A DNA stretch of 64,000 nucleotides from an uncultured Acidobacteriota bacterium (GCA_963792575.1 CAWBWZ010000010.1:136359-200358), one strand, 5' to 3'. Shown: positions 5,547-62,512, numbered from the stretch's first letter. The notes: generated from the sequence alone by a model not told the origin. Translations and numbers: made by a program.

Positions 5547-5652
5547 CATTTCCCTCTGCAAGCATCCCGGCCCGGAGGTTGCAGCACTCTGAGGCCGCTC
5601 GCGTTTCCTCGGAGCCCTCCAGGGTGCGCGTGGGCAGATGTGGAGGACGGAC

Positions 5653-7016
5653 ATGTTGAAGGCCATCAATCCCGCCACCGGCGAGACCCTCCGCGAAGTT
5701 CCCGAGCACGACGAGCAAGAGGTCAACGAGCGGCTGGAGGCTGCCGAGGTGGCCTTCAAGTCCTGGCGGCGCTTCGATTTCGAGGAGCGGGCCCGGCATC
5801 TGACCAGCGTCGCCGACCTGCTGCGCGAGAACATGGCGGACTTCGCCCGGCTGATGACGGAGGAGATGGGCAAGACCCTCGCCTCCGCCGAGTCCGAGGT
5901 CGACAAGTGCGCCTGGGTCTGCGATTTCTACGCCGAGAACGCCGAGCGCTTCCTCGCCAATGAGCCGGTGGCGACCGACGCCGCAAAGAGCTTCATCCGC
6001 TACGAGCCGCTCGGACCGGTGCTCGCCATCATGCCGTGGAACTTCCCGTTCTGGCAGTTCTTCCGCTTCGCGGCGCCGGCGCTGATGGCAGGCAACGTGG
6101 CGCTGCTGAAGCACGCGGCGAACGTCCCCGGCTCGGCTCTCGCCATCGAGGCGGTGTTCCGCGAGGCGGGCCTGCCGGACGGCGTGGTGACCACCCTCCT
6201 GGTCTCCTCGGCGCGGGTCAAGTACCTGATCAGCAACCCCGTGGTGCGGGCGGTGACTCTCACCGGCAGCGACCGCGCCGGCATGGAGGTGGCCGCGGAG
6301 GCGGGGCGGTGCCTGAAGAAGGCGGTCCTCGAGCTGGGCGGCTCCGACCCGTTCATCGTGCTCGTCCGACGTCGATCCCGCCGAGGCGGGCCGGCAGGCG
6401 GCGAAGGCGCGCACGATCAACAACGGTCAGAGCTGTATCGCCGCCAAGCGCTTCATCGTCATCGACGACATCGCCGACCGCTTCGAGGAGGAGTTCGTCC
6501 GCGCCGTGGAAGGGCTCAAGGTGGGCGATCCCATGGAGCGGAGCACGGACGTCGGCCCGATGGCGCGCGAGGATCTGCTCGACTCCCTCGACGATCAGGT
6601 GAAGCGCTCGGTCGCGGCCGGGGCCCAGCTGCGAACCGGCGGCAAGCGGCTGGAAGGGAACGGGCTGGTACTACGCGCCGACGGTGCTGACCGGCGTCCA
6701 GCCCGGCATGGCCGCCTTCGACGAGGAGACCTTCGGGCCGGTGGCGGCGGTGATCCGGGCGCGCGACGCCGCGGAGGCGATCGAGCTGGCGAACCGCTCG
6801 CGGTTCGGCCTCGGCGCCAGCATCTGGACCGCCGACGCCGCCCGCGGCGAGGATCTGGCGGCCGAGATCGAGGCCGGCTGCGTGTTCGTGAACGGCACCG
6901 TCAAGTCCGACCCCCGCCTCCCCTTCGGCGGCGTCAAGAGCTCCGGCTACGGCCGCGAGCTCTCCGAGGTGGGGATCCGCGAGTTCGTGAACATCAAGAC
7001 AGTCTGGATCAAATAA
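5653..7016 (+). CDS. NAD(P)-dependent aldehyde dehydrogenase (succinate-semialdehyde dehydrogenase-like); at least three 1-bp indel frameshifts near ~6365, ~6420 and ~6664
   Basis: ORFs 5638..6690, 6506..7030 and 6684..7016 together read as one ALDH: [11 protein letters not shown]...LELGGSDPF | ...[11 protein letters not shown]...GKRLEGNG | [15 protein letters not shown]...[22 protein letters not shown] precedes ATG 5653. Confidence 0.75.
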
Positions 7017-13887: not shown

Positions 13888-15417
13888 CTACCCCGCATAG
13901 GAATCGTCCTGCTCGATCTTCGACAGGACCCAGTCGAACTCGCCGCTGGTGATCTTGGCGCCGCAGTGCTCGCACTGGCCGGCCATGTTGACGTCGAGCG
14001 GCGCGCCGCAGTTGGGGCAGCTCTTGTCGGCGCGCGGCGTACCCTTCACCCCGGCGCCGCGGATCAGCGTCCAGTATTCGGAGTAGAGGCGGTCGCGCCG
14101 GGGGTCGCCCGAGACGACCTCCCCGGCCGCCTCGCGCACCGTGGTGTCCCGCCCCGAGCCCCAGAGCCGGACGGTCAGCGAGTCATAGTGGCGGTCGCGC
14201 ACGATCTTGACCGTCTTCCAGTCGACGATCCGCATCCCCTCCAGGACGTTGCGCAGCCCCTGCTTCTCATAGGCGGCGATCCAGTACTGCAGGTAGTTGA
14301 AAAGGCCATCCGAGACGAAGGGGCGGACGCCCGCGAGGTCGCGGCGGGACCACCCGCCGTTGAGCTCGCCGTAGATCAGCTGGAGCCGGGCGTTGAGCCC
14401 CTCCTGGGTCACGCCGGGGTCCTCGCGCACCAGCTCCGCCCAGCGGGCATTCAGCTGGGGGTGGAAGATCGTCGGGAAGTCCGTCCCCGCCTCCTGGACG
14501 TTGGAGGTGAGGGCCGGGGGTCGCTCCTCCAGCCGCGCCAGATCGATCGCCTCGACGCTCCAGTCGAACCGGCCGCCCGAGACCACCTCGCCGCAGTACT
14601 GGCAGCGGTCCCCGCCCTCGGGGCCGAACGGCGCGCCGCAATTGGGGCACTGGAAGGAGAGCGCCCGCTCCGGCGGCTTGCTCCGCACATTGGCGTCGCG
14701 CTCCAGGCGCCAGACCTCCTTGACGTAGTGGGTGCTCTCCGCCCCGGCAGCTCCCACCGTCATGTTGGCCTCGAACTCCAGGGTCACCACCGCGCGCGGC
14801 GGCGGTCCTCCCGGCGCGGCCGGCGCGGCGCTGCTGGCCGGCGGCATCGACAGCGCGACGACCCGCATCGCCCCGATCACCACCCCCGAGACCGGGGCGC
14901 CCACCGGCGGGCGCTGGGCAAGCTGGGCGCGGACCGCCAGGGAGAGGTAGGGCGAGAGCGCCTCGAGGTCCCGCTCGCTGGAGCGCGCCTGGTGGGCGCG
15001 GGCGAACAGGGCATAGGCGAAGTCCTCGAAGAGCACCACCGAGAACTCGGGGTCGAGCGTGCGCAGGTCGTCCAGATCGCGCGAGGCCCGCGGCGCCGGA
15101 GCGGCCCGGGGCGGCGCCGAGTCCCAGCGCTGGGAGCCGGCCGCGCCCGTGCGCTTCTGGTACTTGATGAAGGCGTAGACGATCACGATCGTCAACGGGA
15201 TGCCGATCACCGGATGATGGATGATCAGCCAGAACAGCAGCCGGATCAACAGGTAGATGAGGCCGCCGCCATCGCCGCCCCCGCCGCCGCTGCTGCTCCC
15301 TCCCGAATAGCTCTCGCCACCCCCCGCCCGGGCGAACGCCGCGGCGGGCGCCAGCAGAAGGGCGAGGAATCCCAGGAAGGGGAGGAGATGACGGAGCGGC
15401 CGGAGGGAAGACTTCAC
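13888..15417 (-). CDS. Tim44-like domain protein with paired zinc-ribbon motifs; signal peptide, Gly/Ser-rich linker and a transmembrane segment
   Basis: CPNCGAP...CQYCGE and CPNCGAP...CEHCGA zinc ribbons flank two Tim44-like regions (FPTIFHPQLNARWAELV...LFNYLQYWIAAYEKQGL). The upstream 225 codons of the 735-aa ORF are Arg-rich shadow sequence. The GTG start at 15417 follows a GAGG and sits 2 nt after the stop of the upstream gene. Confidence 0.5.
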   Translation of the reverse strand: MKSSLRPLRHLLPFLGFLALLLAPAAAFARAGGGESYSGGSSSGGGGGDGGGLIYLLIRLLFWLIIHHPVIGIPLTIVIVYAFIKYQKRTGAAGSQRWDSAPPRAAPAPRASRDLDDLRTLDPEFSVVLFEDFAYALFARAHQARSSERDLEALSPYLSLAVRAQLAQRPPVGAPVSGVVIGAMRVVALSMPPASSAAPAAPGGPPPRAVVTLEFEANMTVGAAGAESTHYVKEVWRLERDANVRSKPPERALSFQCPNCGAPFGPEGGDRCQYCGEVVSGGRFDWSVEAIDLARLEERPPALTSNVQEAGTDFPTIFHPQLNARWAELVREDPGVTQEGLNARLQLIYGELNGGWSRRDLAGVRPFVSDGLFNYLQYWIAAYEKQGLRNVLEGMRIVDWKTVKIVRDRHYDSLTVRLWGSGRDTTVREAAGEVVSGDPRRDRLYSEYWTLIRGAGVKGTPRADKSCPNCGAPLDVNMAGQCEHCGAKITSGEFDWVLSKIEQDDSYAG

Positions 15418-15419
15418 GG

Positions 15420-16040
15420 TCAGCACACCTCGTTCGGCAGCTCGTCGACGTCGTTCTCGCCCCGCGCCAGGGCGGGACTCAGAAGGGGGGCGAGGGCGCG
15501 GATCCGCGCCGCCACCGCGACCCCGTCCTCCTTGTTGCGGACCGCCTGCTCGATCTCTCCAATCGCGCGCTGCCACGCCTCCGTGGCGGCCAGGGCCTCG
15601 ACCCCGACGTCGGCCACGAAGGCCGCCTCGCGCTCGAGCACGGAAACATAGAAAAGGATGCCCGTCCGTCCGGCCGTGCCGTGGACGCGCCGCTCGACAA
15701 AGGTGGACCGGGCGGCGGCCTCGACCCGCTGCCGGCGCTCGCGCCAAGGCGTGAACGCCCGCCGCAGGCGCGCGCTCCGCGAGCCCACGAGCCCCGCCAG
15801 GGCGCCGATCAGGACGGGATCGACCAGGACCCAGACGGGCGCGAAGATCCAGGGCGAGAAGAGGAGCACCGCGAGCGCCACGAGCCCCATCAGGAGGCCG
15901 AAGCCCAGGCCGGCGTGCAGATACGAGCCGGTCCGCGGCCGGACCGCGATCACCAGCTCGGCGCTGCTGCACGACTCGACCGCGCTCACCGCTTCGGAGA
16001 GCGCGGCCTTGGATTCGTCGTTGAGAAAGGGTTTGGCCAT
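15420..16040 (-). CDS. hypothetical membrane protein (two TM helices followed by a TPM/YgcG-like soluble region), first gene of an operon with the Tim44-like gene
   Basis: ATG 16040 gives MAKPFLNDESKAALSEAV..., hydrophobic segments LHAGLGFGLLMGLVALAVLLF and VWVLVDPVLIGALAGLVG, then GILFYVSVLEREAAFVADVGV. Confidence 0.45.
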   Translation of the reverse strand: MAKPFLNDESKAALSEAVSAVESCSSAELVIAVRPRTGSYLHAGLGFGLLMGLVALAVLLFSPWIFAPVWVLVDPVLIGALAGLVGSRSARLRRAFTPWRERRQRVEAAARSTFVERRVHGTAGRTGILFYVSVLEREAAFVADVGVEALAATEAWQRAIGEIEQAVRNKEDGVAVAARIRALAPLLSPALARGENDVDELPNEVC

Positions 16041-16288
16041 GAGCGTTCCGGTCGTGGAGGGAGTTTATCCCAGGCCTGAGGGTGGAGGACGGCAAAGCCG
16101 CGACATGTCAGGACATGCCCTTTGTTGCGCCTCTTGACAACACGGCCGGAATTTGGCTATCTTGGGTCTCGGCAGGCATGCGCGGGGGAAACTTCTGGTC
16201 GCTCTGGTAGCGGCAGCCCCTTTGGGGGTGGGATCCTGAAGCCCGGGGCCTGCTTATTCTTCTCCCTCTAGAATTTCGCGTACCCAGC

Positions 16289-22545: not shown

Positions 22546-24036
22546 CTACTTCGCTCCCTTCTCCTCCTTCGGCGGTTCCAGCACGAACGGCGTCATCTGG
22601 ATCTTGCCCACGCAGGAGAGGTCGAGCCCATCGCCGGAGCCCTTCTCGATGAAGCTCACCGTGAGCTGATTCCGGCACGGTTCCTCGCCACCGTGGCTGC
22701 CCCAGGGGATGACGACGCGGCCCGCGTGGGTCATCGCGCGGGTCACCCGCGGTCCGAAGTCGGGGGGCGTCACCGGGTCGCGCTCGCCGTTGATCACCAG
22801 GACCGGGAGGTCCGAGGCGACCGGCTCGCGGTGGCTCGGCTCGATCCGGGCGCGCGGCCAGGCGCCGCAGGCCGCCGTCTGCTGCGCGACCCGGTAGTCG
22901 CCGAGGAACGTGTTGGCCGTGCGCGCCGGTACCTGGGCGGGATCGATGAACGGGATGTCCTCGGCGCAAGTGACGGAGAAGAACAGGCCCATGGTGATCC
23001 CGTCGATGGCGCCGAGGCGCGAGTTGACACTCGCCTGGGCGAGCGGCGCGAAATCGCCGGCGGCCGCCTGGTGGATCATCAGCGGCAGCCAGGAGCTCGG
23101 CCTGGGGGAGTAGAGGGCCCAGCGGACGCCGTCCGCCACGACGTTCCAGGCGACCTTCACCTGCACTGGTTTGCCCGTCCGCGGGTGCTTGACCTCCACC
23201 GTCGCCGGCTCCCGCCGGAGCTGGCTCATCACCGTCTGGAACTCCTGCCGGAATTCCGGGAACTTGCCATGGCAGGCCGCGTCCTTCTCACACCATTCGG
23301 TGAGCAGGTCCAGCGAGCGCTGGCCGGCGGCGGCATGGGTGATGGGGAGCGTCTCGTCCATCGGCACCGCGCCGTCGAGGACCACGGAGCGCACCGACCC
23401 CGGATGGCGCCGCAGATAGACCTGCGCCGCCCGCGTGCCGTAGGAACCGCCCACGACGTTGATCTTGCCGTAGCCCAGCCAGGCCCGCGCCTGGTCGAAG
23501 TCGTCGATCGCCATGTCGGTGGTGTAGAGCGTCAGATCGTGCGTCTTCGCCAGGCGCTCGCGGCATTCGCGGACGGCGGCGACGGGGAACATCTCCCCGA
23601 GATAGCTCTGGAGGTCGTCCTCGTGGCCGCCGAGCTCGCAGGCCAGCTTGTCCGGCTCCCCCGTGCCGCGCTGGTCCACGAAGACGAGGTCGCGGTCGCG
23701 GCGCAGCTCGCTATCCGCGAGATAACCCGCCTCCGCGGCGATCGCCTCGCCCGGGCCGCCGCCGAAGAAAAACACCGGATCCGGCTTCGGCGCCGCCGAC
23801 CTGGCGGGGAGGACGACGACCTTCAGACGGATCTTGCGGCCGGACTTCGCCTCCCGGTTCTCCCAGACCTCGAGGAGGCCGCAGCGGGCGGTGACCTTGT
23901 CCTTCGCTCCCGGCACCTTGCAGGGCTTGAGTTTGGCAGCGTAAGGATGGACAGACGGCTTGGCGCCGGCGGGGAGCGCGACGGCTACGAGGGTCAGGGC
24001 GAGAAGGGCGGGCTTCAGTAACTTCCGAAAGATCAT
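22546..24036 (-). CDS. secreted alpha/beta-hydrolase peptidase (S33/TAP-like tripeptidyl aminopeptidase family)
   Basis: Signal peptide MIFRKLLKPALLALTLVAVALPAGA and nucleophile elbow VVGGSYGT. The 495 aa are typical of TAP-like proline/tripeptidyl peptidases. Confidence 0.7.
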   Translation of the reverse strand: MIFRKLLKPALLALTLVAVALPAGAKPSVHPYAAKLKPCKVPGAKDKVTARCGLLEVWENREAKSGRKIRLKVVVLPARSAAPKPDPVFFFGGGPGEAIAAEAGYLADSELRRDRDLVFVDQRGTGEPDKLACELGGHEDDLQSYLGEMFPVAAVRECRERLAKTHDLTLYTTDMAIDDFDQARAWLGYGKINVVGGSYGTRAAQVYLRRHPGSVRSVVLDGAVPMDETLPITHAAAGQRSLDLLTEWCEKDAACHGKFPEFRQEFQTVMSQLRREPATVEVKHPRTGKPVQVKVAWNVVADGVRWALYSPRPSSWLPLMIHQAAAGDFAPLAQASVNSRLGAIDGITMGLFFSVTCAEDIPFIDPAQVPARTANTFLGDYRVAQQTAACGAWPRARIEPSHREPVASDLPVLVINGERDPVTPPDFGPRVTRAMTHAGRVVIPWGSHGGEEPCRNQLTVSFIEKGSGDGLDLSCVGKIQMTPFVLEPPKEEKGAK

Positions 24037-24110
24037 AGATTTCTCCTGTCGTCTTTTCGATTTACGCAGGATAGCGGAAGGGTGTTTCAGATCCGGATAC
24101 AATCCGCCGC

Positions 24111-25163
24111 ATGGCACTGTTCCGGCGCAAGTTCCGCCTCACCGCCTGCGCGACCACCGGCGGCTGAGCGGCCAAGATAGGTCCGGGGGACCTTTCAACG
24201 ATGATCTCTCCGCTCGTCCGGCTCTTCGGACGGGATGAGAGGATCCTCGTCGGCGCGGAGACCGGCGATGACGCCGGAGTCTACCTCCTCGGCGACCGCG
24301 CCCTGGTCGCCACCGCCGACTTCATCACCCCGGTCTGCGACGATCCACACCGCTTCGGCCGCGTCGCCGCCGCCAACGCCCTCTCGGACGTCTATGCCAT
24401 GGGTGGCCGGCCGCTCTTCGCCCTCAACCTCTGCTGCTTCCCGGAGCTGGACGAGGAGGGGGACAAGGCGCTGGCGGGGGTCCTGCGCGGCGCCGCCGAA
24501 GCCCTGGTGGACGCCGGCGCCGTGCTGCTCGGCGGCCACTCGGTGCGCGACCCCGAGCTGAAGTTCGGCCTGTCCGTCATCGGCGAGGCCGATCCCAAAC
24601 GCCTGCTCACCAACGCCGGAGCGCGGGCGGGGGACCGGCTGCTGCTCACCAAGCCGCTCGGCACCGGCATCCTGATCAATGCCTTCAAGGTCGACAAGAT
24701 CGACGAGGAGGGCCTCGAGCCCGCCCTCCGCGAGATGGAGCGGCTGAACGACGTGGCGAGCCGGCTGGCCCTCGAGCACGGCGCCCACGCCGCCACCGAC
24801 GTCACCGGCTTCGGCCTGACCGGCCACGCGCTGGGCATGGCCAAGGCCTCGCAGGTCGCCGTCCGCTTCATCTTCGAGCAGCTGCCGGTCCACGCGGAGG
24901 TCTACCGGCTGATCAAGGCGGGGGTGACCACCGGCTGCACCGTGGCCAACGAGGAGAACGTGAGCGCCGTCCTCAGCGACTTCGCCAAGCTCGACCGCAT
25001 CCGGCGCGAGGTGCTCTTCGATCCCCAGACCTCGGGGGGGCTCCTCCTCGCCGTGCCCGCCGGGAACGCTCCCGCTCTCCTCGCCGCCCTGCTCGCCAGC
25101 GGCCATCAGGCGGCCGATGTCGGCGAGGTGCTGGAAGGGCCGGCGCGGATCGAAGTGACTTAG
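24111..25163 (+). CDS. selD: selenide, water dikinase (selenophosphate synthetase) containing an in-frame UGA selenocysteine codon at 24165-24167
   Basis: The annotated ORF (24201..) lacks the catalytic N-terminus. Extending in frame to ATG 24111 gives MALFRRKFRLTACATTGG-U-AAKIGPGDLSTMISPLV, which aligns with E. coli SelD HGAGCGCKISPKVL, with the UGA at the Cys17 position. A hairpin GGTCC-GGG-GGACC lies 12 nt downstream. Confidence 0.75.
24165..24191 (+). promoter_or_regulatory. candidate bacterial SECIS element directing Sec insertion in selD
   Basis: UGA followed after 11-12 nt by the stem-loop AGGTCC-GGG-GGACCT with a G-rich apical loop, the position typical of bSECIS. Confidence 0.5.
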
Positions 25164-25177
25164 AAGGTATTTGGAAA

Positions 25178-25362
25178 GTGGCGATTCCGTTTGGCACCCT
25201 CACTGTAGAGACGCCCCGTGGGGCGTCTCCGAGGCGGAGAGGAAGATCCTCATTGCCACAGAGCACCCGCGGGGGCGTCCAAGGGAGCATGGCCGACGTT
25301 CGCTGCCCTGGAGACGCCCCACGGGGCGTCTCTACAGTGGAGGGGCACCCCTTTCCAAACAC
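25178..25362. repeat. MITE-like element: ~50-bp imperfect terminal inverted repeats, including a perfect 27-bp inverted pair, around an ~80-bp core
   Basis: CTGTAGAGACGCCCCGTGGGGCGTCTC (25203-25229) is exactly reverse-complemented at 25311-25337. Flanking TTTGGAAAG...GGCACCC extends the inverted repeat, and each 27-mer is itself palindromic. Confidence 0.45.
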
Positions 25363-25378
25363 CCTCTTAGACGTGCTT

Positions 25379-25447
25379 CTGTAGGGGCGGCCCTATGTGG
25401 CCGCCCTGGGTGCCGGAGCAGGGCGGCCACATAGGGCCGCCCCTACA
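25379..25447. repeat. perfect 29-bp inverted repeat hairpin (11-nt loop) at the convergent selD/yceH junction
   Basis: TGTAGGGGCGGCCCTATGTGGCCGCCCTG ... CAGGGCGGCCACATAGGGCCGCCCCTACA. No U-tract follows. Confidence 0.5.
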
Positions 25448-25455
25448 AGCGCTGC

Positions 25456-26112
25456 CTACACTCCAAGCTGCTTTTTTAATTCCTCCAGCTCCGCCGCCAG
25501 CCGCTCGACGATCTCCTCCAGACGCTGCACCCGCGAGGCGAGGCCCGGCCGTGGGGGCGCGGACGGATCGGCGGCGGCCTCGAAGATCTCCTCGGGCTCC
25601 GGCTCCGGGGACGCCTCTCCCACCAGATGAGTCCAGCGCGCCTCCTTCTGGCCGGGCCGGCGGGGGAGCTCCATCACCAGCGGCTCGTCGTCCGCGGCCA
25701 GGCGGCGGAGCGCCTCCTCGGTCTCCTCCAGCGAGGCGAAGGGGTGAAGGCGCTCGCTGCGGGTGCGCAGCTCGCCCGCCGTCTGCGGACCGCGCAGCAG
25801 CAGGAGCGTGATCAGCGCCTTGCCCGCGCGGTCCAGCCCCCAGCGGCGCACCACGCTCTGCTGCCAGCGCTCCGTGCGCGCCCCCTCCGAGCGCCAGGCG
25901 AGCACCTCCTGCCGCATCCAGTCGAGGGCGGTGACCACCTGGTCCTCGGTGAGCTGCATCACCGGCTCGCGATTGGTCTTCTGGTTGCAGGCGGCGATCA
26001 GGGCATTGATGGTCATCGGCACGGTCTCAGGGTTCGTCTGCTCCTTCTCCAGAAGCGAGCCGAGCACCCGTACCTCCACGGCATCGAGCTTTCTTGGAAT
26101 GCGTGTCGACAT
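25456..26112 (-). CDS. yceH: YceH/DUF480 family protein
   Basis: LDAVEVRVLGSLLEKEQTNPETVPMTINALIAACNQKTNREPVM...LITLLLLRGPQTAGELRTRSERL matches the E. coli YceH pattern. Confidence 0.7.
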   Translation of the reverse strand: MSTRIPRKLDAVEVRVLGSLLEKEQTNPETVPMTINALIAACNQKTNREPVMQLTEDQVVTALDWMRQEVLAWRSEGARTERWQQSVVRRWGLDRAGKALITLLLLRGPQTAGELRTRSERLHPFASLEETEEALRRLAADDEPLVMELPRRPGQKEARWTHLVGEASPEPEPEEIFEAAADPSAPPRPGLASRVQRLEEIVERLAAELEELKKQLGV

Positions 26113-29305: not shown

Positions 29306-30175
29306 TTAGATCCTCCAACGGACGCGCGTCCGAAGGGGGATTTTTCCTACCCCAAACCCCTGAACTCTGCCGTCTGGCCCCTTCCGGAACTTTGTAAGTA
29401 TCCGCAAGAACCAGTCATAGGATGGAAGACTCGGCAACCCGCGCGTCTCCCACTCCTCGCCGTATTCACGGAACTGCCGATAGACGTTATAAGCCACTAC
29501 ATCTGCGACCTGCAGCAACTCGGATTGTTTCGAGTCCACAAACCGCAAGTCCTTCAGGTGCTCGAAGGTGAGCCCTTTCCACAGCGTAGAGCCAGTCTTT
29601 CTTAACTGTCCGTGGTGTCGGCGAAGATTCTCACGGTACTGGTTTCCCTTCGGTGTCGCCCCACTCATGTCGTCCACAACTACGGAAAAAGAACGCGAAC
29701 CGCCCACTGAATCACGATCAACGATTTCAGCATGGGCTCGCTGAAGGAGCAGCTCATAGGCCGCGGCAGGTGGATACCAGGCGCGGTCGCCGTAATCCTC
29801 CCGCATGTGAACCTTGTCTACCACACACGCAATGAGCACCAGCTCACTGTCTAATATGGCTTGGTAAAATCGCTCCACAAAGCGTGTAAGGCCAGCTTCC
29901 GACAGGCCAAATCTTCGCAGATACCGGGATGTTCTTTCGTTTTCCAGGCGCAGCCAGTTTGACTTGATTTCTACGTTCTCAGTCCTGAATGTTTCCACCT
30001 TTAAGCGTCGGATCTGTGCCGTGAGCCTTCTCGCGTTTTCTATCCCTAAAAATGGACCTCCGAATACGAAGTAGCGCGTATTTCCCGCTCCGTAAGCCCC
30101 GGAGGGCGAAGACTCCTTGGTCCCGGAATCGTCTACATATAGGATGTGGGTCTCTTCCTCATCTTCCTTTGACAT
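29306..30175 (-). CDS. DUF3800 domain protein within a lower-GC islet immediately 3' of tmRNA
   Basis: MSKEDEEETHILYVDDSGT carries the DUF3800 N-terminal signature. The region 29100-30300 is visibly AT-richer than its flanks. Confidence 0.6.
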   Translation of the reverse strand: MSKEDEEETHILYVDDSGTKESSPSGAYGAGNTRYFVFGGPFLGIENARRLTAQIRRLKVETFRTENVEIKSNWLRLENERTSRYLRRFGLSEAGLTRFVERFYQAILDSELVLIACVVDKVHMREDYGDRAWYPPAAAYELLLQRAHAEIVDRDSVGGSRSFSVVVDDMSGATPKGNQYRENLRRHHGQLRKTGSTLWKGLTFEHLKDLRFVDSKQSELLQVADVVAYNVYRQFREYGEEWETRGLPSLPSYDWFLRILTKFRKGPDGRVQGFGVGKIPLRTRVRWRI

Positions 30176-30300
30176 TAGCAAATTCGGGTCTCGGCCCGCG
30201 GCATATCTCCGGCGGACCAGACAGAGTCTCCTCAATATAAATGTTAAGGTAAATTAACCTCGGAGGCGTGGTGCGTCGACCTTCCTCCGGCGGAGTCCGC

Positions 30301-37995: not shown

Positions 37996-38078
37996 GAACA
38001 CGGACAGACACGGACGTAGAGGACGAACACGAGGCCCAGGCGTGTTCGTCCTTTACGTCCGTGTCTGTCCGTGTTCTT
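37994..38078. repeat. AAGGAC/CACGGAC-repeat long hairpin, copy 3, wedged exactly between convergent stop codons
   Basis: AAGAACACGGACAGACACGGACGTAGAGGACGAACACG, loop AGGCCCAGGC, then CGTGTTCGTCCTTTACGTCCGTGTCTGTCCGTGTTCTT. The stem is a near-perfect 37 bp. Confidence 0.6.
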
Positions 38079-38461
38079 TAAGCCTTGGCCACCAGCTTGG
38101 GGCCTGCCGGCCGGGCTTCACGGTTCATCGAGCAGCGCCCTTCGAAAGTGGCGCCGTCTTCAATGATCAGCGAAGGCGTATCGATCTCGGCGAATACTTT
38201 ACCGCTGGGGGCAATTTGAACCTTGCGAAGGGCACGAATAATGCCTTTAACCGTGCCGGAGATGAAAACCTGTCCAGCCCGGACCTCGCCGTCCACCTCC
38301 CCGGCTTCCCCGACGATCAGGTCCCCTTCCGACTCCACCGTGCCGGTGAGCTTGCCGTCGACACGGAACGAGGCGTCGAAGCGCAGCTCCCCCTGGAGAT
38401 GACTGCCACCGTCGAGAAAGCCATTGAGGTCGCTCTGCTTACCGTCCGACTTGAAGATCAT
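38078..38461 (-). CDS. bactofilin (DUF583 polymer-forming cytoskeletal protein), translationally coupled to parB
   Basis: MIFKSDGKQSDLNGFLDGGSHLQGELRFDASFRVDGKLTGTVESEGDLIVGEAGEVDGEV... is a beta-helical bactofilin repeat. Its ATG overlaps the parB TGA as ATGA. Confidence 0.75.
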   Translation of the reverse strand: MIFKSDGKQSDLNGFLDGGSHLQGELRFDASFRVDGKLTGTVESEGDLIVGEAGEVDGEVRAGQVFISGTVKGIIRALRKVQIAPSGKVFAEIDTPSLIIEDGATFEGRCSMNREARPAGPKLVAKA

Positions 38462-39364
38462 CGGTTCTCTCCCCGCTCGATCAGTACGTCGAAAAGCCGC
38501 ATCAGCTCCTCCTCCGAGTGGAAGTGGATGCGGAGCTGCCCACGCTGGCCACCCTTGCCCTGTCGCATGATCTCGACCCGGGTTTGCAGGCGGCGGGTGA
38601 GCCGCTCCTCGGCGGCGGCGGTATGGACCTCGACCGGACGGTCCGGCTTCTTGGTTTTGGGACGCTCCTCCCGGGGGGCGGCGGCCAAGCCGCTCGAGAT
38701 CGCGCGCGGAGAGCCCGTCGCGCACCGCGCTGTCGGCGAGCCGGATCTGCTCCTCCTGATCCTGCAGGCCGAGCAGCGGGCGCGCCTGGCCGGCGGTGAG
38801 CCTGCCCTCGCGCAGCAGGTCGAGCACATCGTCCGGCAGGCGCAGCAGGCGCAGCGAGTTGGTGACCGTGGTGCGCGCCTTGCCGACGCGGGCGGCCACC
38901 TCCTCCTGCGAGAGGCCGAACTTCTCCTGGAGGGCGGCGTAGGCTTCGGCCTCCTCGATCGGATTGAGATCGCTGCGCTGCAGATTCTCGACCAGGGCGA
39001 GCTCCAGCAGCTCGCGATCGTCGGCGACCTGGCGAACGACCACCGGAACCGATTCGAGCCCCGCTTTCCGGGCCGCCCGCCAGCGGCGTTCGCCGGCGAT
39101 GATGGCGTAGCCGTCCCCCTCGGCCGTCACCACCAGCGGCTGAATGACTCCCTGGGTGCGGATCGACGCCGCGAGGTCCTCGATCGCCGCATCGTCGAAG
39201 CGGGTGCGCGGCTGGAAGCGGTTGGGGTGCAGGCGATCGATGGGGAGTGTGCGCACCGGCTCGTCCGGCTTCGGCTCGGCCTTCTCGATCAGCGCGTCGA
39301 GGCCGCGGCCGAGCCCACGCTTCTTGCCAGCGGTTTTGCTTTCCGTAGTGCTGCTGGCCATCAT
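38458..39364 (-). CDS. parB: chromosome partitioning protein ParB; 1-bp insertion frameshift near ~38690
   Basis: N-terminal GLGRGLDALI and ParB-box IIAGERRWRAA...LVENLQR with an HTH, then (after the shift, ORF 38458..38829) the C-terminal dimerisation segment ...GQLRIHFHSEEELMRLFDVLIERGE. Confidence 0.85.
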
Positions 39365-48364: not shown

Positions 48365-48661
48365 ATGAGCAGCATGCAGAAACTGATGAAGCAGGCCCAG
48401 GAGATGCAGGAGCGCCTGCAGCGCGAGCTGAACGAGCTGGTCGTCGAGTCCAGCGTCGGCGGCGGCATGGTGACCGTCAAGATGAGCGGCCACAAGCAGC
48501 TCGTCGGCTGCAAGATCGACCCTGAGGCGATGGACAAGGATGATCCGTCGATGCTCGAGGACCTGATCGTCGCGGCCGTCAACGAGGCCGGCCGCAAGAT
48601 CGAGGAGACGATGCAAGGCAAGATGGGGTCGATGGCGTCGAGCATGCCGGGCCTCTTCTAG
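48365..48661 (+). CDS. ybaB: nucleoid-associated protein YbaB/EbfC
   Basis: MQKLMKQAQEMQERLQRELNELVVESSVGGGMVTVKMSGHKQLVGCKIDPEAM. Confidence 0.85.
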   Translation: MSSMQKLMKQAQEMQERLQRELNELVVESSVGGGMVTVKMSGHKQLVGCKIDPEAMDKDDPSMLEDLIVAAVNEAGRKIEETMQGKMGSMASSMPGLF

Positions 48662-58723: not shown

Positions 58724-60029
58724 ATGTCGCAATCCTATTGGTCTCTCCTCCAGAGACAGCTTCAGCAGCAGCTCGATCCCGACGAGTTCGCCACCTGGTT
58801 CCGCCCCTTGCGAGTGGGTGACGAGGATGGCCGCCGGCTGGTGCTGGTGGCTCCCAACTCGCGCTTCCTCCACACGCTGGAGGAGAGCTACCGGCCGATG
58901 GTCGACCGGGCGGTGGCGGGCCTGGCGGACTCCGGCGTTCGAGGTGCTGTTCTCGCTCGACGACATCGAGGTCGCCGCTTCCCCGGAAGAGCCGATCACG
59001 CCGTCGAGCTTCAACCCCAAGTACATGTTCGCCAGCTTCGTCGAGGGCAAGTCCAACGAGTTCGCCCTCGCCGCCGCCAAGCGCGTGGCCGAGAACCCGT
59101 CGCTCTCCTACAACCCGCTCTTCCTCTATGGCGGCGTCGGCCTCGGCAAGACCCATCTGCTGCACGCCATCGGCTCACGAGATCCAGCGCAGCCGGCCGC
59201 AGCTGCGCGTGCTCTACCTGGCCGGCCGAGCAGTTCGTCAACGAGCTGATCAACTCGATCCGCTTCGACCGCATGCCGGCTTTTCGCGAGCGCTACCGCA
59301 CGATCGACGTGCTGATGATCGACGACGTGCAGTTCCTGGCCAACAAGGAGCGGACGCAGGAGGAGTTCTTCCACACCTTCAACACGCTCTACACCAGCCA
59401 GAAGCAGATCATCCTCTCCTCCGACTCCTCGCCGCGGAACATCCCGACGCTGGAGGAACGGCTGCGCAGCCGCTTCGAGTGGGGGCTGATCGCCGACATC
59501 CAGCCGCCGGACCTGGAGACCAAGGTGGCGATCCTGCAGCGCAAGGCCTCGCTCGAGGACATCCAGCTTCCCGAGGAGGTGGCGCGAGTTCATCGCCCAG
59601 CAGGTGAAGTCGAACATCCGCGAGCTCGAGGGGTTGCTGACGCGGGTGATGGCCTTCTCCTCGCTCACCGGCAAGCCGCTCTCGCCGGCGCTCGCCCGCG
59701 AGACGCTCAAGGACATCCTCCCCGAGGAGGGGAAGAAGCCCCGCCGCGGCCGAGATCATCAAGGTCGTGGCCCGGCACTACGACCTCAAGGTCTCCGAGA
59801 TCAAGAGCAAGAGCAACTCGCGGCAGATCGTCATCCCGCGGCAGGTGGCGATGTACCTCTGCAAGCGCGCTGACGGATCTCTCCTACCCGGAGATCGGCA
59901 AACTTTTCAACGACAAGCACCACTCGACGGTCATGTACTGCGGTCGAGACGGGCATCGAAGAAGCGCGACGCCGAGCGATCCGCGACTTCGACCGCACCC
60001 TCAAGGCCTTCGAGCAGCACTTCAAGTAG
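58724..60029 (+). CDS. dnaA: chromosomal replication initiator DnaA, broken by at least six 1-bp indels
   Basis: Pieces lie in three frames: [29 protein letters not shown] (domain I); [21 protein letters not shown] (Walker A); [10 protein letters not shown]; [10 protein letters not shown]; domain [18 protein letters not shown]. Confidence 0.85.
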
Positions 60030-60298
60030 GCCGTGACAGGCGGAAGACCGCCTGCGGGAAAGCCTGTGGAGAGGCGCCGCGACAAGCGTTGTGGAAAATC
60101 TGCGGAATTTTTCTCGGCCTTACGGGCTTTTCCGCACCGCCTCCACAACCCGTCCACAGGTTACCCACAGCCCTGCCGAAGACCTAAGGTTTGCCACTCT
60201 GACAGAGGCTTAGGTCCGGTTTTCCGCATTTCCGCGGCGCCTATCTACTACTACTGCTATGCTATATATTCAGATGTCTTCTAGAGGAGGAAGAGTGA
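60030..60298. other. oriC: candidate oriC: DnaA-box cluster plus AT-rich unwinding element in the dnaA-dnaN intergenic region
   Basis: Boxes TGTGGAGAG (60065), TGTGGAAAA (60090), CTCCACAAC (60141), TCCACAGG (60154), TTACCCACA (60161, 8/9) and TTTTCCGCA (60220). These are followed by the 45-bp AT-rich CTATCTACTACTACTGCTATGCTATATATTCAGATG containing (TAC)3. Confidence 0.6.
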
Positions 60299-61440: not shown

Positions 61441-62512
61441 ATGCTCACCCACCTCACCGCCCGCGACTTCCGCAACCTGGAGCCCCTCTCCTGGCGCCCT
61501 TCGGCGGGGTCCCATCTCCTGCTGGGCGGCAACGGAGCCGGCAAGACGAGCCTTCTGGAGGCCGTCTACGCGCTGGCCACCACCCGCAGCTTCCGCGCCT
61601 CCCAGATCGGCGACTGCGCCCGGCACGGCGCCGGCTCCTTCCACATTCAGGGGGAGATCGAGACCGACCGCCGCTCCACCCTGGAAGTAGGCTGGATGGA
61701 GGGGCAGCGGGTGCGGGCGCTCAACGGCAAGGTGACGCCGCTCGCCGAGCACCTGGCCGTGCTCCCGGTGGTGGCCTGGACGGCCGCGGCGGAGGCCGAG
61801 GTGCTGGTGGGGGCTCCCAAGGCGCGCCGCCGCTTCATGGATCGCGGCGTCGTGGGAATCCGGCCCGTGGCCCTGGAAGTCCTCGGCCGCTACCGCGAGG
61901 CCCTGCGGCAGAAACGGGGGCTCCTGCTCTCCGACGGCGCCGGCATCGAGATCTGGAACGAGATGCTGGCCGCCACCGCCGCGGACGTCATCGCCCAGCG
62001 CCATCGCTACGTCGAGCTCCTCAAGGTCCAGCTCGCCCAGGTCCTCGACGCTTCCGGGCTCCAGTTTCCCGCCGATCGAGCTGCGCTACCGCCCCTCGCC
62101 CGCCAGCGGCCTCGAAGGGCAGACGGTCATCGCCGACGCTCTCGACCGCATCGCCGACCGCGAGCGCCGGCGCCAGACGCCTCTCCTCGGACCTCACCGC
62201 GACGAGCTGGAGATCCTCTGGGGGGGGCATGAGATCCGGCGCGTGGCCTCGGCCGGCGAGCGCAAGGCCCTCTCCCTGATGCTCCTGGCCGCCCACGGAA
62301 AGGTCATGGAGGAAGCCGGGAGGCCCCCCCTCTACATGCTCGACGACATGGACGCCGAGCTGGCGCCGCCGACCGTGACCGCCGTCTGGGGGATCTTCCG
62401 TGGCGCGGCCCAGCTCTTCGCCACCTCCAACCGCCCGCAGGTCTGGCTGACCCTGGACGTCGGCGACGATCTGGGAGATGGAGCGGGGCGAGCTGAGGCT
62501 CCTCTCCGAGTA
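61441..62512 (+). CDS. recF: DNA replication and repair protein RecF; frameshifted
   Basis: LLLGGNGAGKTSLLEAVY Walker A, the signature SAGERKALSLMLLAA, and Walker B LYMLDDMDAELA in a second frame. Confidence 0.8.

Follow-up and report, generated by a model that had tools for sequence, protein, structure and literature searches.

An in-frame UGA interrupts selD, the gene for selenide, water dikinase, at positions 24111-25163 of a 64,000-nucleotide stretch of DNA from an uncultured Thermoanaerobaculia bacterium (Acidobacteriota), here called the window, and the question is whether this codon ends translation or is read as selenocysteine (Sec). The initial annotation had proposed the latter, placing the UGA at the catalytic Cys position of the enzyme and a hairpin resembling a bacterial Sec insertion sequence (bSECIS) shortly downstream of it. 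From the sequence comparisons reported below, we consider it very likely (a probability of about 0.93) that this selD encodes a selenoprotein, the UGA at 24165-24167 specifying Sec19.

The mechanical open reading frame (ORF) list starts the gene at ATG 24201 and gives a product of 320 residues; a look-up of the exact sequence of this product found no entry. When the same plus-strand frame was read from ATG 24111, a single stop, TGA 24165-24167, was met ahead of the terminal TAG (25161-25163), and the translation ran MALFRRKFRLTACATTGG, then the UGA, then AAKIGPGDLSTMISPL and onward. An in-frame TAG lies 13 codons 5' of ATG 24111, and no start codon occurs between the two. The G+C content at third codon positions (GC3) of the 18 codons preceding the UGA is 16/17, similar to that of the remaining gene (selD GC3, 0.93), and the G+C content at codon positions 1, 2 and 3 of the frame is 0.76, 0.45 and 0.93. 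An antisense ORF at 24195-25106 was rejected as a gene, since the codon-position G+C of the plus frame marks it as the shadow of a G+C-rich coding strand. The coordinates and sequences given earlier for selD, the UGA and the hairpin proved exact, and neither the ORF list nor the profile alignment offered a Cys-containing N-terminus from another frame or an upstream start. TGA terminates 29 of the 54 predicted genes in the window and is its commonest stop; UGA thus serves as an ordinary stop in this DNA, its reading in selD must be a specific recoding, and a reassignment of UGA as in genetic code 4 or 25 is ruled out by the same count.

The product of 24111-25163 is, by family membership, SelD, the selenophosphate synthetase. 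In profile searches, for which U19 was written as C, the protein scored 348.1 bits against NCBIfam TIGR00476 (selD; cutoff, 125) and 302.6 bits against NF002098 (cutoff, 299), and it contained the AIR-synthase-related domains AIRS (PF00586, 86.3 bits) and AIRS_C (PF02769, 71.4 bits). The TIGR00476 alignment ran across the UGA, matching residues 9-317 to profile positions 1-308. The best PDB match was SelD of Aquifex aeolicus (2yye/2zod; E = 2.5e-65, aligned from residue 10), and SelD of Escherichia coli (3u0o) matched with E = 4.2e-58. These alignments place TGG-U19-AAK22-IGPGDL opposite SSG-C-AAK-VGPGDL of the Aquifex crystal construct, in which Cys replaces the native Sec13, and the Gly-rich loop was found with U19 opposite Cys17 and Lys22 opposite Lys20 of the E. 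coli segment GAG-C17-GC-K20-ISPKVL. On the strength of the alignments to these two proteins, one Cys-type and one Sec-type, the UGA occupies the catalytic Cys/Sec position, as had been proposed. The codon of the catalytic Lys sits between the UGA and the miscalled start ATG 24201, and TIGR00476 and the PDB alignments agree that extending the frame to ATG 24111 restores the SelD N-terminus.

Relatives were collected by a scan of one genome per species, which gave 62 loci (L numbers below), all but three of them in metagenome-assembled genomes (MAGs) of Thermoanaerobaculia or Acidobacteriota. The tblastn matches in these loci span residues 1-350 at 64-97% identity, the closest relatives of the window being L049 and L002 with about 93% nucleotide identity; SelD of OY969112.1, a complete genome of the clade, is 94% identical. 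TGA was found at the identical codon in all 57 related species loci containing the region, and in 54/54 full-length relative genes; a Rubrobacter locus and a Desulfobacteraceae locus also carry an in-frame TGA at this column. The 57 loci share a near-invariant MALFRRKFRLTACATTGG, then the TGA, then AAK[IV]GPGDL, while overall SelD identity drops to 64%, and Lys22 is invariant among all relatives examined. In a codon alignment of the 54 full-length selD genes, every one of the 17 degenerate codons ahead of the UGA varied synonymously (2-4 codons each), although 15 of the 17 residues were invariant and the other two, at positions 12 and 13, were conserved at 93% and 96%. Because the codons vary synonymously while the residues stay, which is a signature of purifying selection, the stretch preceding the UGA is translated. 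The features of a selenoprotein gene, an in-frame UGA aligned with the Cys of homologs and coding conservation on both flanks, are therefore present in this selD.

Beginning 12 nt 3' of the UGA, GGTCC (24180-24184), a GGG loop (24185-24187) and GGACC (24188-24192) form a stem-loop with an optional sixth pair (A24179-U24193), predicted both by folding and by the consensus fold of the alignment. In a 2026 review, the bSECIS model comprises a loop of 3-9 nt with a G in the first two loop positions, a stem of 4-16 bp, 16-37 nt from the UGA to the loop and a minimum free energy of at most -7.5 kcal/mol (PMC13188914). With a loop of 3 nt (GGG), a stem of 5-6 bp and 17 nt from UGA to loop, the selD hairpin lies within the geometric limits of that model (PMC13188914), so that the stem-loop described by the initial annotation at this distance was borne out in loop, stem and position.

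The hairpin is constrained beyond what its peptide explains. Its 14 nt GGTCCGGGGGACCT are invariant in 58 sequences, whereas the flanking codons drift (GCG/GCC/GCA, AAG/AAA, ATA/ATC/GTA/GTC/GTG and CTT/CTG/CTC/CTA). Across the whole gene, 13 of the 104 degenerate columns with an invariant residue use a single codon, and four of these are the consecutive hairpin codons GGT CCG GGG GAC, the only run of codons in the gene that shows no synonymous change (54 species). When the comparison was restricted to four- or six-fold degenerate columns, 5/73 were single-codon, three of them inside the hairpin. GGT is itself rare in selD (2/38 Gly codons). Elsewhere in the window, the hairpin motif GGTCCGGGGGACC occurred at chance level only.

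More distant genes were examined in a metagenome scan with a three-sequence SelD alignment, which returned 80 loci, mostly at 41-50% identity. The Sec column of these diverse genes held TGA in 64/77 and TGT or TGC in 13/77. A hairpin of bSECIS geometry (a stem of at least 4 bp and, 16-37 nt from the codon, a loop of 3-9 nt with a G in its first two positions) was detected in 64/66 Sec-type genes, with a mean of -8.0 kcal/mol, compared to a mean of -2.8 kcal/mol in the 13 Cys-type genes, four of which had no such hairpin (Mann-Whitney p = 2.4e-5). Four pairs in the register of the window's hairpin were present in 43/66 Sec-type genes (36 with a tri- or pentaloop and seven with a GGUC tetraloop) and in 0/13 Cys-type genes; Cys-type genes coding for similar peptides (GPGTL, GPGEL, GPADL) lack the pairing. 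Among the distant Sec-type genes, pair 18-26 occurs as U-A (33 genes), G-C (2) or C-G (1), with a matching change of the encoded residue (D, A or G). Two pairs of the tetraloop class are likewise exchanged (G-C/A-U and U-A/C-G). The encoded peptide thus tracks the RNA (GPGDL, GPAGL, GPGAL, SPVGL), and, as the second base of codon 27 is paired with the wobble base of Gly24, a silent site varies together with residue 27 (D, G or A). The evolutionary support for the hairpin consists, then, of RNA-level constraint exceeding that on the protein together with compensatory changes in distant Sec-type genes.

The SelD hairpins fall into positional classes with the loop at +16/17, +20 or +33, and that of the window belongs to the commonest. 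Over the 66 nt from the Sec codon in the metagenomic loci L065-L142, the +16/17 class reads GGUCC-GGN-GGACC, or NNCCC-GGUC-GGGNN with the peptide SPVGL; an example of the +20 class is GUCCGGC-GGU-GCUGGAC, and the +33 class reads GCGCAG-GUC-CUGCGC with the peptide AQVLR. Every class carries its own peptide motif.

If the UGA were not decoded, it would be difficult to account for its conservation, together with that of the two flanks and the hairpin, in at least 57 species. In the model that we favour, translation would start at ATG 24111, probably on a leaderless mRNA, and the UGA at codon 19 would not be read as a stop. By analogy with established bacterial Sec decoding, the hairpin at 24179-24193 would act as the bSECIS and be bound by SelB carrying GTP and Sec-tRNA(Sec), and SelB would deliver Sec to the ribosomal A site when UGA 24165 arrives there. 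Incorporation of selenium would give an enzyme of 350 residues with Sec19 in the N-terminal Gly-rich catalytic loop, three residues before the catalytic Lys22. The same analogy predicts that selA, selB and selC are present in the genome.

Several observations weigh against this interpretation, and they concern the hairpin as well as the decoding machinery. The 15-nt hairpin alone folds with -7.4 kcal/mol and just misses the -7.5 kcal/mol limit of the model; the outcome depends on the segment folded, as the UGA plus 33 nt, which includes a 2-bp extension, gave -10.3 kcal/mol (z = -0.9). Its energy was not significant compared to shuffled sequences (z = -1.7; 24/200 shuffles were as stable) in this DNA of 68% G+C, and the significance of the hairpin comes from the comparative data rather than from its folding energy. 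No covariation was seen within the clade, where the stem never varies, the covariation being contributed only by distant SelD genes. No Rfam SECIS family matched at the gathering threshold, nor at E <= 10 on 24100-24300; since curated models poorly capture short bSECIS hairpins, this result is not evidence against function.

As to the machinery, ARAGORN and Rfam found three tRNA-Ser genes, a transfer-messenger RNA (tmRNA) gene and a signal recognition particle (SRP) RNA gene in the 64-kb window, but no tRNA-Sec. Neither selA nor selB was found in the window by Pfam on 40 of the approximately 54 predicted ORFs, and tblastn with E. coli SelA and SelB sequences gave no match in the window or the 62 loci, a weak negative given the provenance of the query sequences. 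Owing to the coverage of Pfam and the nature of these queries, the absence from the window is not rigorous. No selA, selB or tRNA-Sec was found within ±10 kb of selD in the 62 relatives either (loci of 4-21 kb). These searches covered the window and the selD neighbourhoods, the window being about 1% of a genome of approximately 7 Mb (chromosomes of relatives, 5.5-8.8 Mb). In addition, scans of the window for further in-frame TGA candidates, based on GC3 periodicity with or without a hairpin, detected no second selenoprotein gene. They picked up nothing but neighbouring genes that share a frame and noise from wrong frames, and this type of scan misses N-terminal Sec sites such as that of selD.

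Freezing of the element over 14 nt (stem, loop and closing bases, more than pairing needs) in at least 57 species, with the UGA 54 nt from an apparently leaderless 5' end, leaves room for more speculative ideas, which we regard as a long shot. The hairpin could be one half of an unusually sequence-specific SelB-SECIS pair; alternatively, SelD synthesis could depend on its own product in a self-referential circuit, the Sec machinery then being kept mainly for selD, or a tRNA-Sec-like tRNA(Cys) could insert Cys at the UGA under selenium shortage.

In a quite improbable variant of the Sec model, the UGA and hairpin would be decoded through SelB, but a tRNA-Sec-like tRNA(Cys) (anticodon UCA) would insert Cys, or a mixture of Sec and Cys set by the selenium supply would be incorporated. 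Such a system has reportedly been described (Vargas-Rodriguez and colleagues, RNA Biology, 2018, volume 15, page 471), and it would ease a bootstrap problem, namely that selenophosphate, the product of SelD, is required to make a SelD that contains Sec. The sequence data do not separate Sec from Cys at this position. Nevertheless, SelD genes of this type as a rule use canonical Sec insertion, and nothing in the clade points to such a tRNA: the 95-96 nt calls made by ARAGORN near selD of relatives, as "tRNA-Ala(GGC)" or "tRNA-Gly(UCC)", lie inside G+C-rich coding DNA and were rejected, both as tRNA-Sec and as allo-tRNA, as false positives.

Even less probable is that the UGA is a real stop, ending an 18-residue peptide ahead of a separate, truncated SelD translated from ATG 24201. 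The mechanical ORF does start there, the best 120 homologs listed are of about the corresponding length (115 of them exactly 320 residues), and Sec machinery was not seen in the window. However, the peptide encoded by the 11 codons from the UGA to ATG 24201, AAKIGPGDLST, is conserved and includes the catalytic Lys, and the SelD profile aligns continuously across the UGA. Met31 is kept in only 78% of the 54 relatives and replaced in 22%, so it is no conserved initiation site. A protein starting at Met31 would lack the Gly-rich loop, the Cys/Sec residue and the Lys; E. coli SelD needs both Cys17 and Lys20 to be active. Nor would a true stop explain why the 18 upstream codons drift synonymously yet are strictly conserved in what they encode.

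An origin of the TGA in faulty assembly or sequencing or in a recent pseudogenising mutation, with the hairpin as a by-product of the GPGDL peptide and G+C-rich codons, is scarcely credible and already refuted by the comparative data, even though other genes in the window seem frameshifted (an aldehyde dehydrogenase gene over three frames, fragmentary profile matches for dnaA) and the hairpin energy is unremarkable against shuffles, because the same TGA recurs in 57 independent assemblies of different species and in 64/77 distant metagenomic homologs, the rare hairpin codons GGT and GGG never drift while their neighbours do, and Cys-type genes with comparable peptides do not pair.

The reading of UGA 24165-24167 as Sec places this gene in a known group, since Sec-containing SelD with a SECIS is already well known in bacteria and only the lineage is unreported in the literature searched: a full-text search returned no paper mentioning both Thermoanaerobaculia and selenocysteine. 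In an earlier survey no bacterial selenoproteins were more widespread than FdhA and SelD (PMC1794560), and the bSECIS of SelD genes has also been treated elsewhere (PMC4561486). Among prokaryotic selenoprotein families SelD is ranked second in spread by the 2026 review, which places the Sec in an N-terminal flexible loop (PMC13188914). A near-identical hairpin has been published for Acetomicrobium mobile SelD in BSepDB (...SGUAAKLGPADL), for which a canonical SECIS, UGAGCAGCCAAAUUGGGUCCGGCGGACCUC, is predicted (PMC13326102). It has the same GGUCC/GGACC stem at the same distance from the UGA as the window, but its loop is GGC instead of GGG, giving Ala for the second Gly, and it belongs to Synergistota rather than Acidobacteriota.

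Likeness to Sec-containing SelD of A. aeolicus (2yye/2zod) is at the protein level: the two belong to the same family and share the motif G-U-AAK-[IV]-GPGDL, with Sec three residues before the catalytic Lys, but Aquifex is of another phylum and the window protein has a distinctive N-terminus, MALFRRKFRLT, probably translated from a leaderless mRNA. The E. coli enzyme (3u0o) is orthologous and of the Cys type, with GAG-C17-GC-K20 in place of TGG-U19-AA-K22; it has Cys for Sec and neither UGA nor SECIS, and the sampled Cys-type genes likewise lack the hairpin. The SECIS of E. coli fdhF is the experimentally defined bacterial element and is bound by SelB. The fdhF hairpin also lies in the coding sequence, about 11 nt after the UGA, and has an apical loop beginning with G, but it is longer, with a GGUC-type loop and a bulged U, compared to the 5-6 bp stem and GGG triloop of the window's selD. 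The fdhF-type GGUC tetraloop does occur in other SelD genes, those of the SPVGL type.

The practical consequence concerns annotation. Homologs were searched in a collection of 5.8 billion proteins, and the best 120 matches listed (76-90% identity) cover 82-91% of the full-length query. Those that are not exactly 320 residues long range from 289 to 323; the shortest is one 289-residue fragment, and the remaining homologs have 313-323 residues. The expectation that an annotation stopping at the UGA truncates the protein thus held for every one of the 120 closest homologs listed, and because all of these are shortened and miss the catalytic loop, the truncation is systematic. The correct product would have 350 residues with U at position 19, and automatic pipelines therefore mis-describe the enzyme across a class of abundant soil Acidobacteriota. 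The finding also marks Thermoanaerobaculia as a lineage predicted to use Sec, and the comparisons offer an example of mutual constraint between an RNA hairpin and a peptide motif. What is known of Sec decoding is left unchanged, and the main value of the result lies in annotation.

Table 1. Features at and around selD. Positions are those of the window, except for the tRNA calls, which are given in the coordinates of the related loci named.
Feature	Position	Strand	Basis or remark
Full-length selD (selenide, water dikinase)	24111-25163	+	350 codons plus TAG; profile, domain, PDB and tblastn matches
18 codons before the UGA, MALFRRKFRLTACATTGG	24111-24164	+	Translated N-terminus, including the Gly-rich loop
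In-frame UGA, probably read as Sec, residue 19	24165-24167	+	Conservation; alignment to the Cys/Sec site
Lys22 codon, counterpart of catalytic Lys20 of E. coli SelD	24174-24176	+	Alignment to 3u0o and 2yye
Predicted bSECIS apical hairpin A-GGUCC-GGG-GGACC-U, also coding for (I)GPGDL	24179-24193	+	Folding, alignment consensus fold and comparison
Internal ATG (Met31), start wrongly taken for the 320-residue ORF	24201-24203	+	Mechanical ORF list
-10-like hexamer TACAAT, probable promoter	24098-24103	+	7 nt 5' of the selD ATG
Second hairpin, CUCGUCCG-GCUCUU-CGGACGGG	24213-24234	+	-10.6 kcal/mol, z = -3.1; uncertain relevance
Secreted alpha/beta hydrolase gene, divergent from selD	22546-24117	-
DUF480 gene, convergent with selD	25456-26112	-
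Aldehyde dehydrogenase gene, fragmented	5638-7016
dnaA, fragmented	58724-60187
RecF/SMC-like gene, fragmented	61441-62232
False-positive tRNA calls	L003 2055-2149; L006 16589-16684; L016 15389-15484		ARAGORN

A TA[CG]AAT box lies 6-10 nt 5' of the selD ATG in 49/57 related sequences (TAnnnT in 53/57), and a Shine-Dalgarno-like motif was present in only 1/57. These two observations together suggest that the selD mRNA is leaderless or near-leaderless, in which case only 54 nt would separate the Sec-UGA from the 5' end. For lack of a -35 match, the TACAAT box of the window was not called by the consensus promoter scan.

A second hairpin follows the predicted bSECIS (Table 1) and lies inside an imperfect long hairpin of about 20 bp (24198-24250) spanning the miscalled ATG 24201. 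Close relatives retain it; across the relatives 81% of its pairing is kept, and four of its pairs change on both sides, with G-C replaced by A-U in L031 and L032. As a part of the SECIS it was rejected, since its covariation resembles that of slid controls and it is not conserved in distant Thermoanaerobaculia; it is probably not part of the SECIS.

Beyond the two genes flanking selD, the neighbourhood holds genes for an SDR protein, an aquaporin, a cold-shock protein, Dus and the tmRNA, none of them selenium-related. The intergenic region between selD and the DUF480 gene (25159-25447) contains nested inverted repeats, with 23-nt arms at 25159/25348 and 47-nt arms at 25194/25300, each of the latter including the palindrome GAGACGCCCC-NN-GGGGCGTCTC, as well as a perfect 29-nt palindrome pair at 25380-25447. 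The first element, from 25159, is absent from all related loci and may be an insertion resembling a miniature inverted-repeat transposable element. The palindrome at 25380-25447 resembles a repetitive extragenic palindrome, since copies occur elsewhere in L009, L023 and L037.

Three genes of the window are fragmented: the aldehyde dehydrogenase gene is split over three reading frames, and dnaA and a RecF/SMC-like gene gave only fragmentary Pfam profile matches, which points to assembly indel errors, as in long-read MAGs, or to pseudogenes. Unlike these, selD is intact over residues 1-350. What appears to be a neighbourhood of the replication-origin type extends over 38000-62300, with parB-parA-gidB, yidC, two tRNA-Ser genes and the SRP RNA gene followed by dnaX, a small in-frame ORF downstream of dnaX (48365-48661), then dnaA and the RecF/SMC-like gene. 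The ParB protein encoded there (38078-39364, minus strand; ParB_N plus HTH_ParB), whose gene adjoins parA and gidB, carries a C-terminal bactofilin domain (PF04519, residues 317-411), a fusion of ParB to bactofilin that seems unusual. At 16171-16259 on the plus strand lies a DUF3800-VII RNA motif (Rfam RF02967, 78 bits); a gene for a DUF3800 protein, from which the motif takes its name, lies 13 kb from it, at 29306-30235 on the minus strand, so the two are not adjacent. Finally, a protein of 735 residues encoded at 13888-16095 (minus strand) has a C-terminal Tim44-like domain (PF04280) and a GC3 of 0.81, below that of most window genes.

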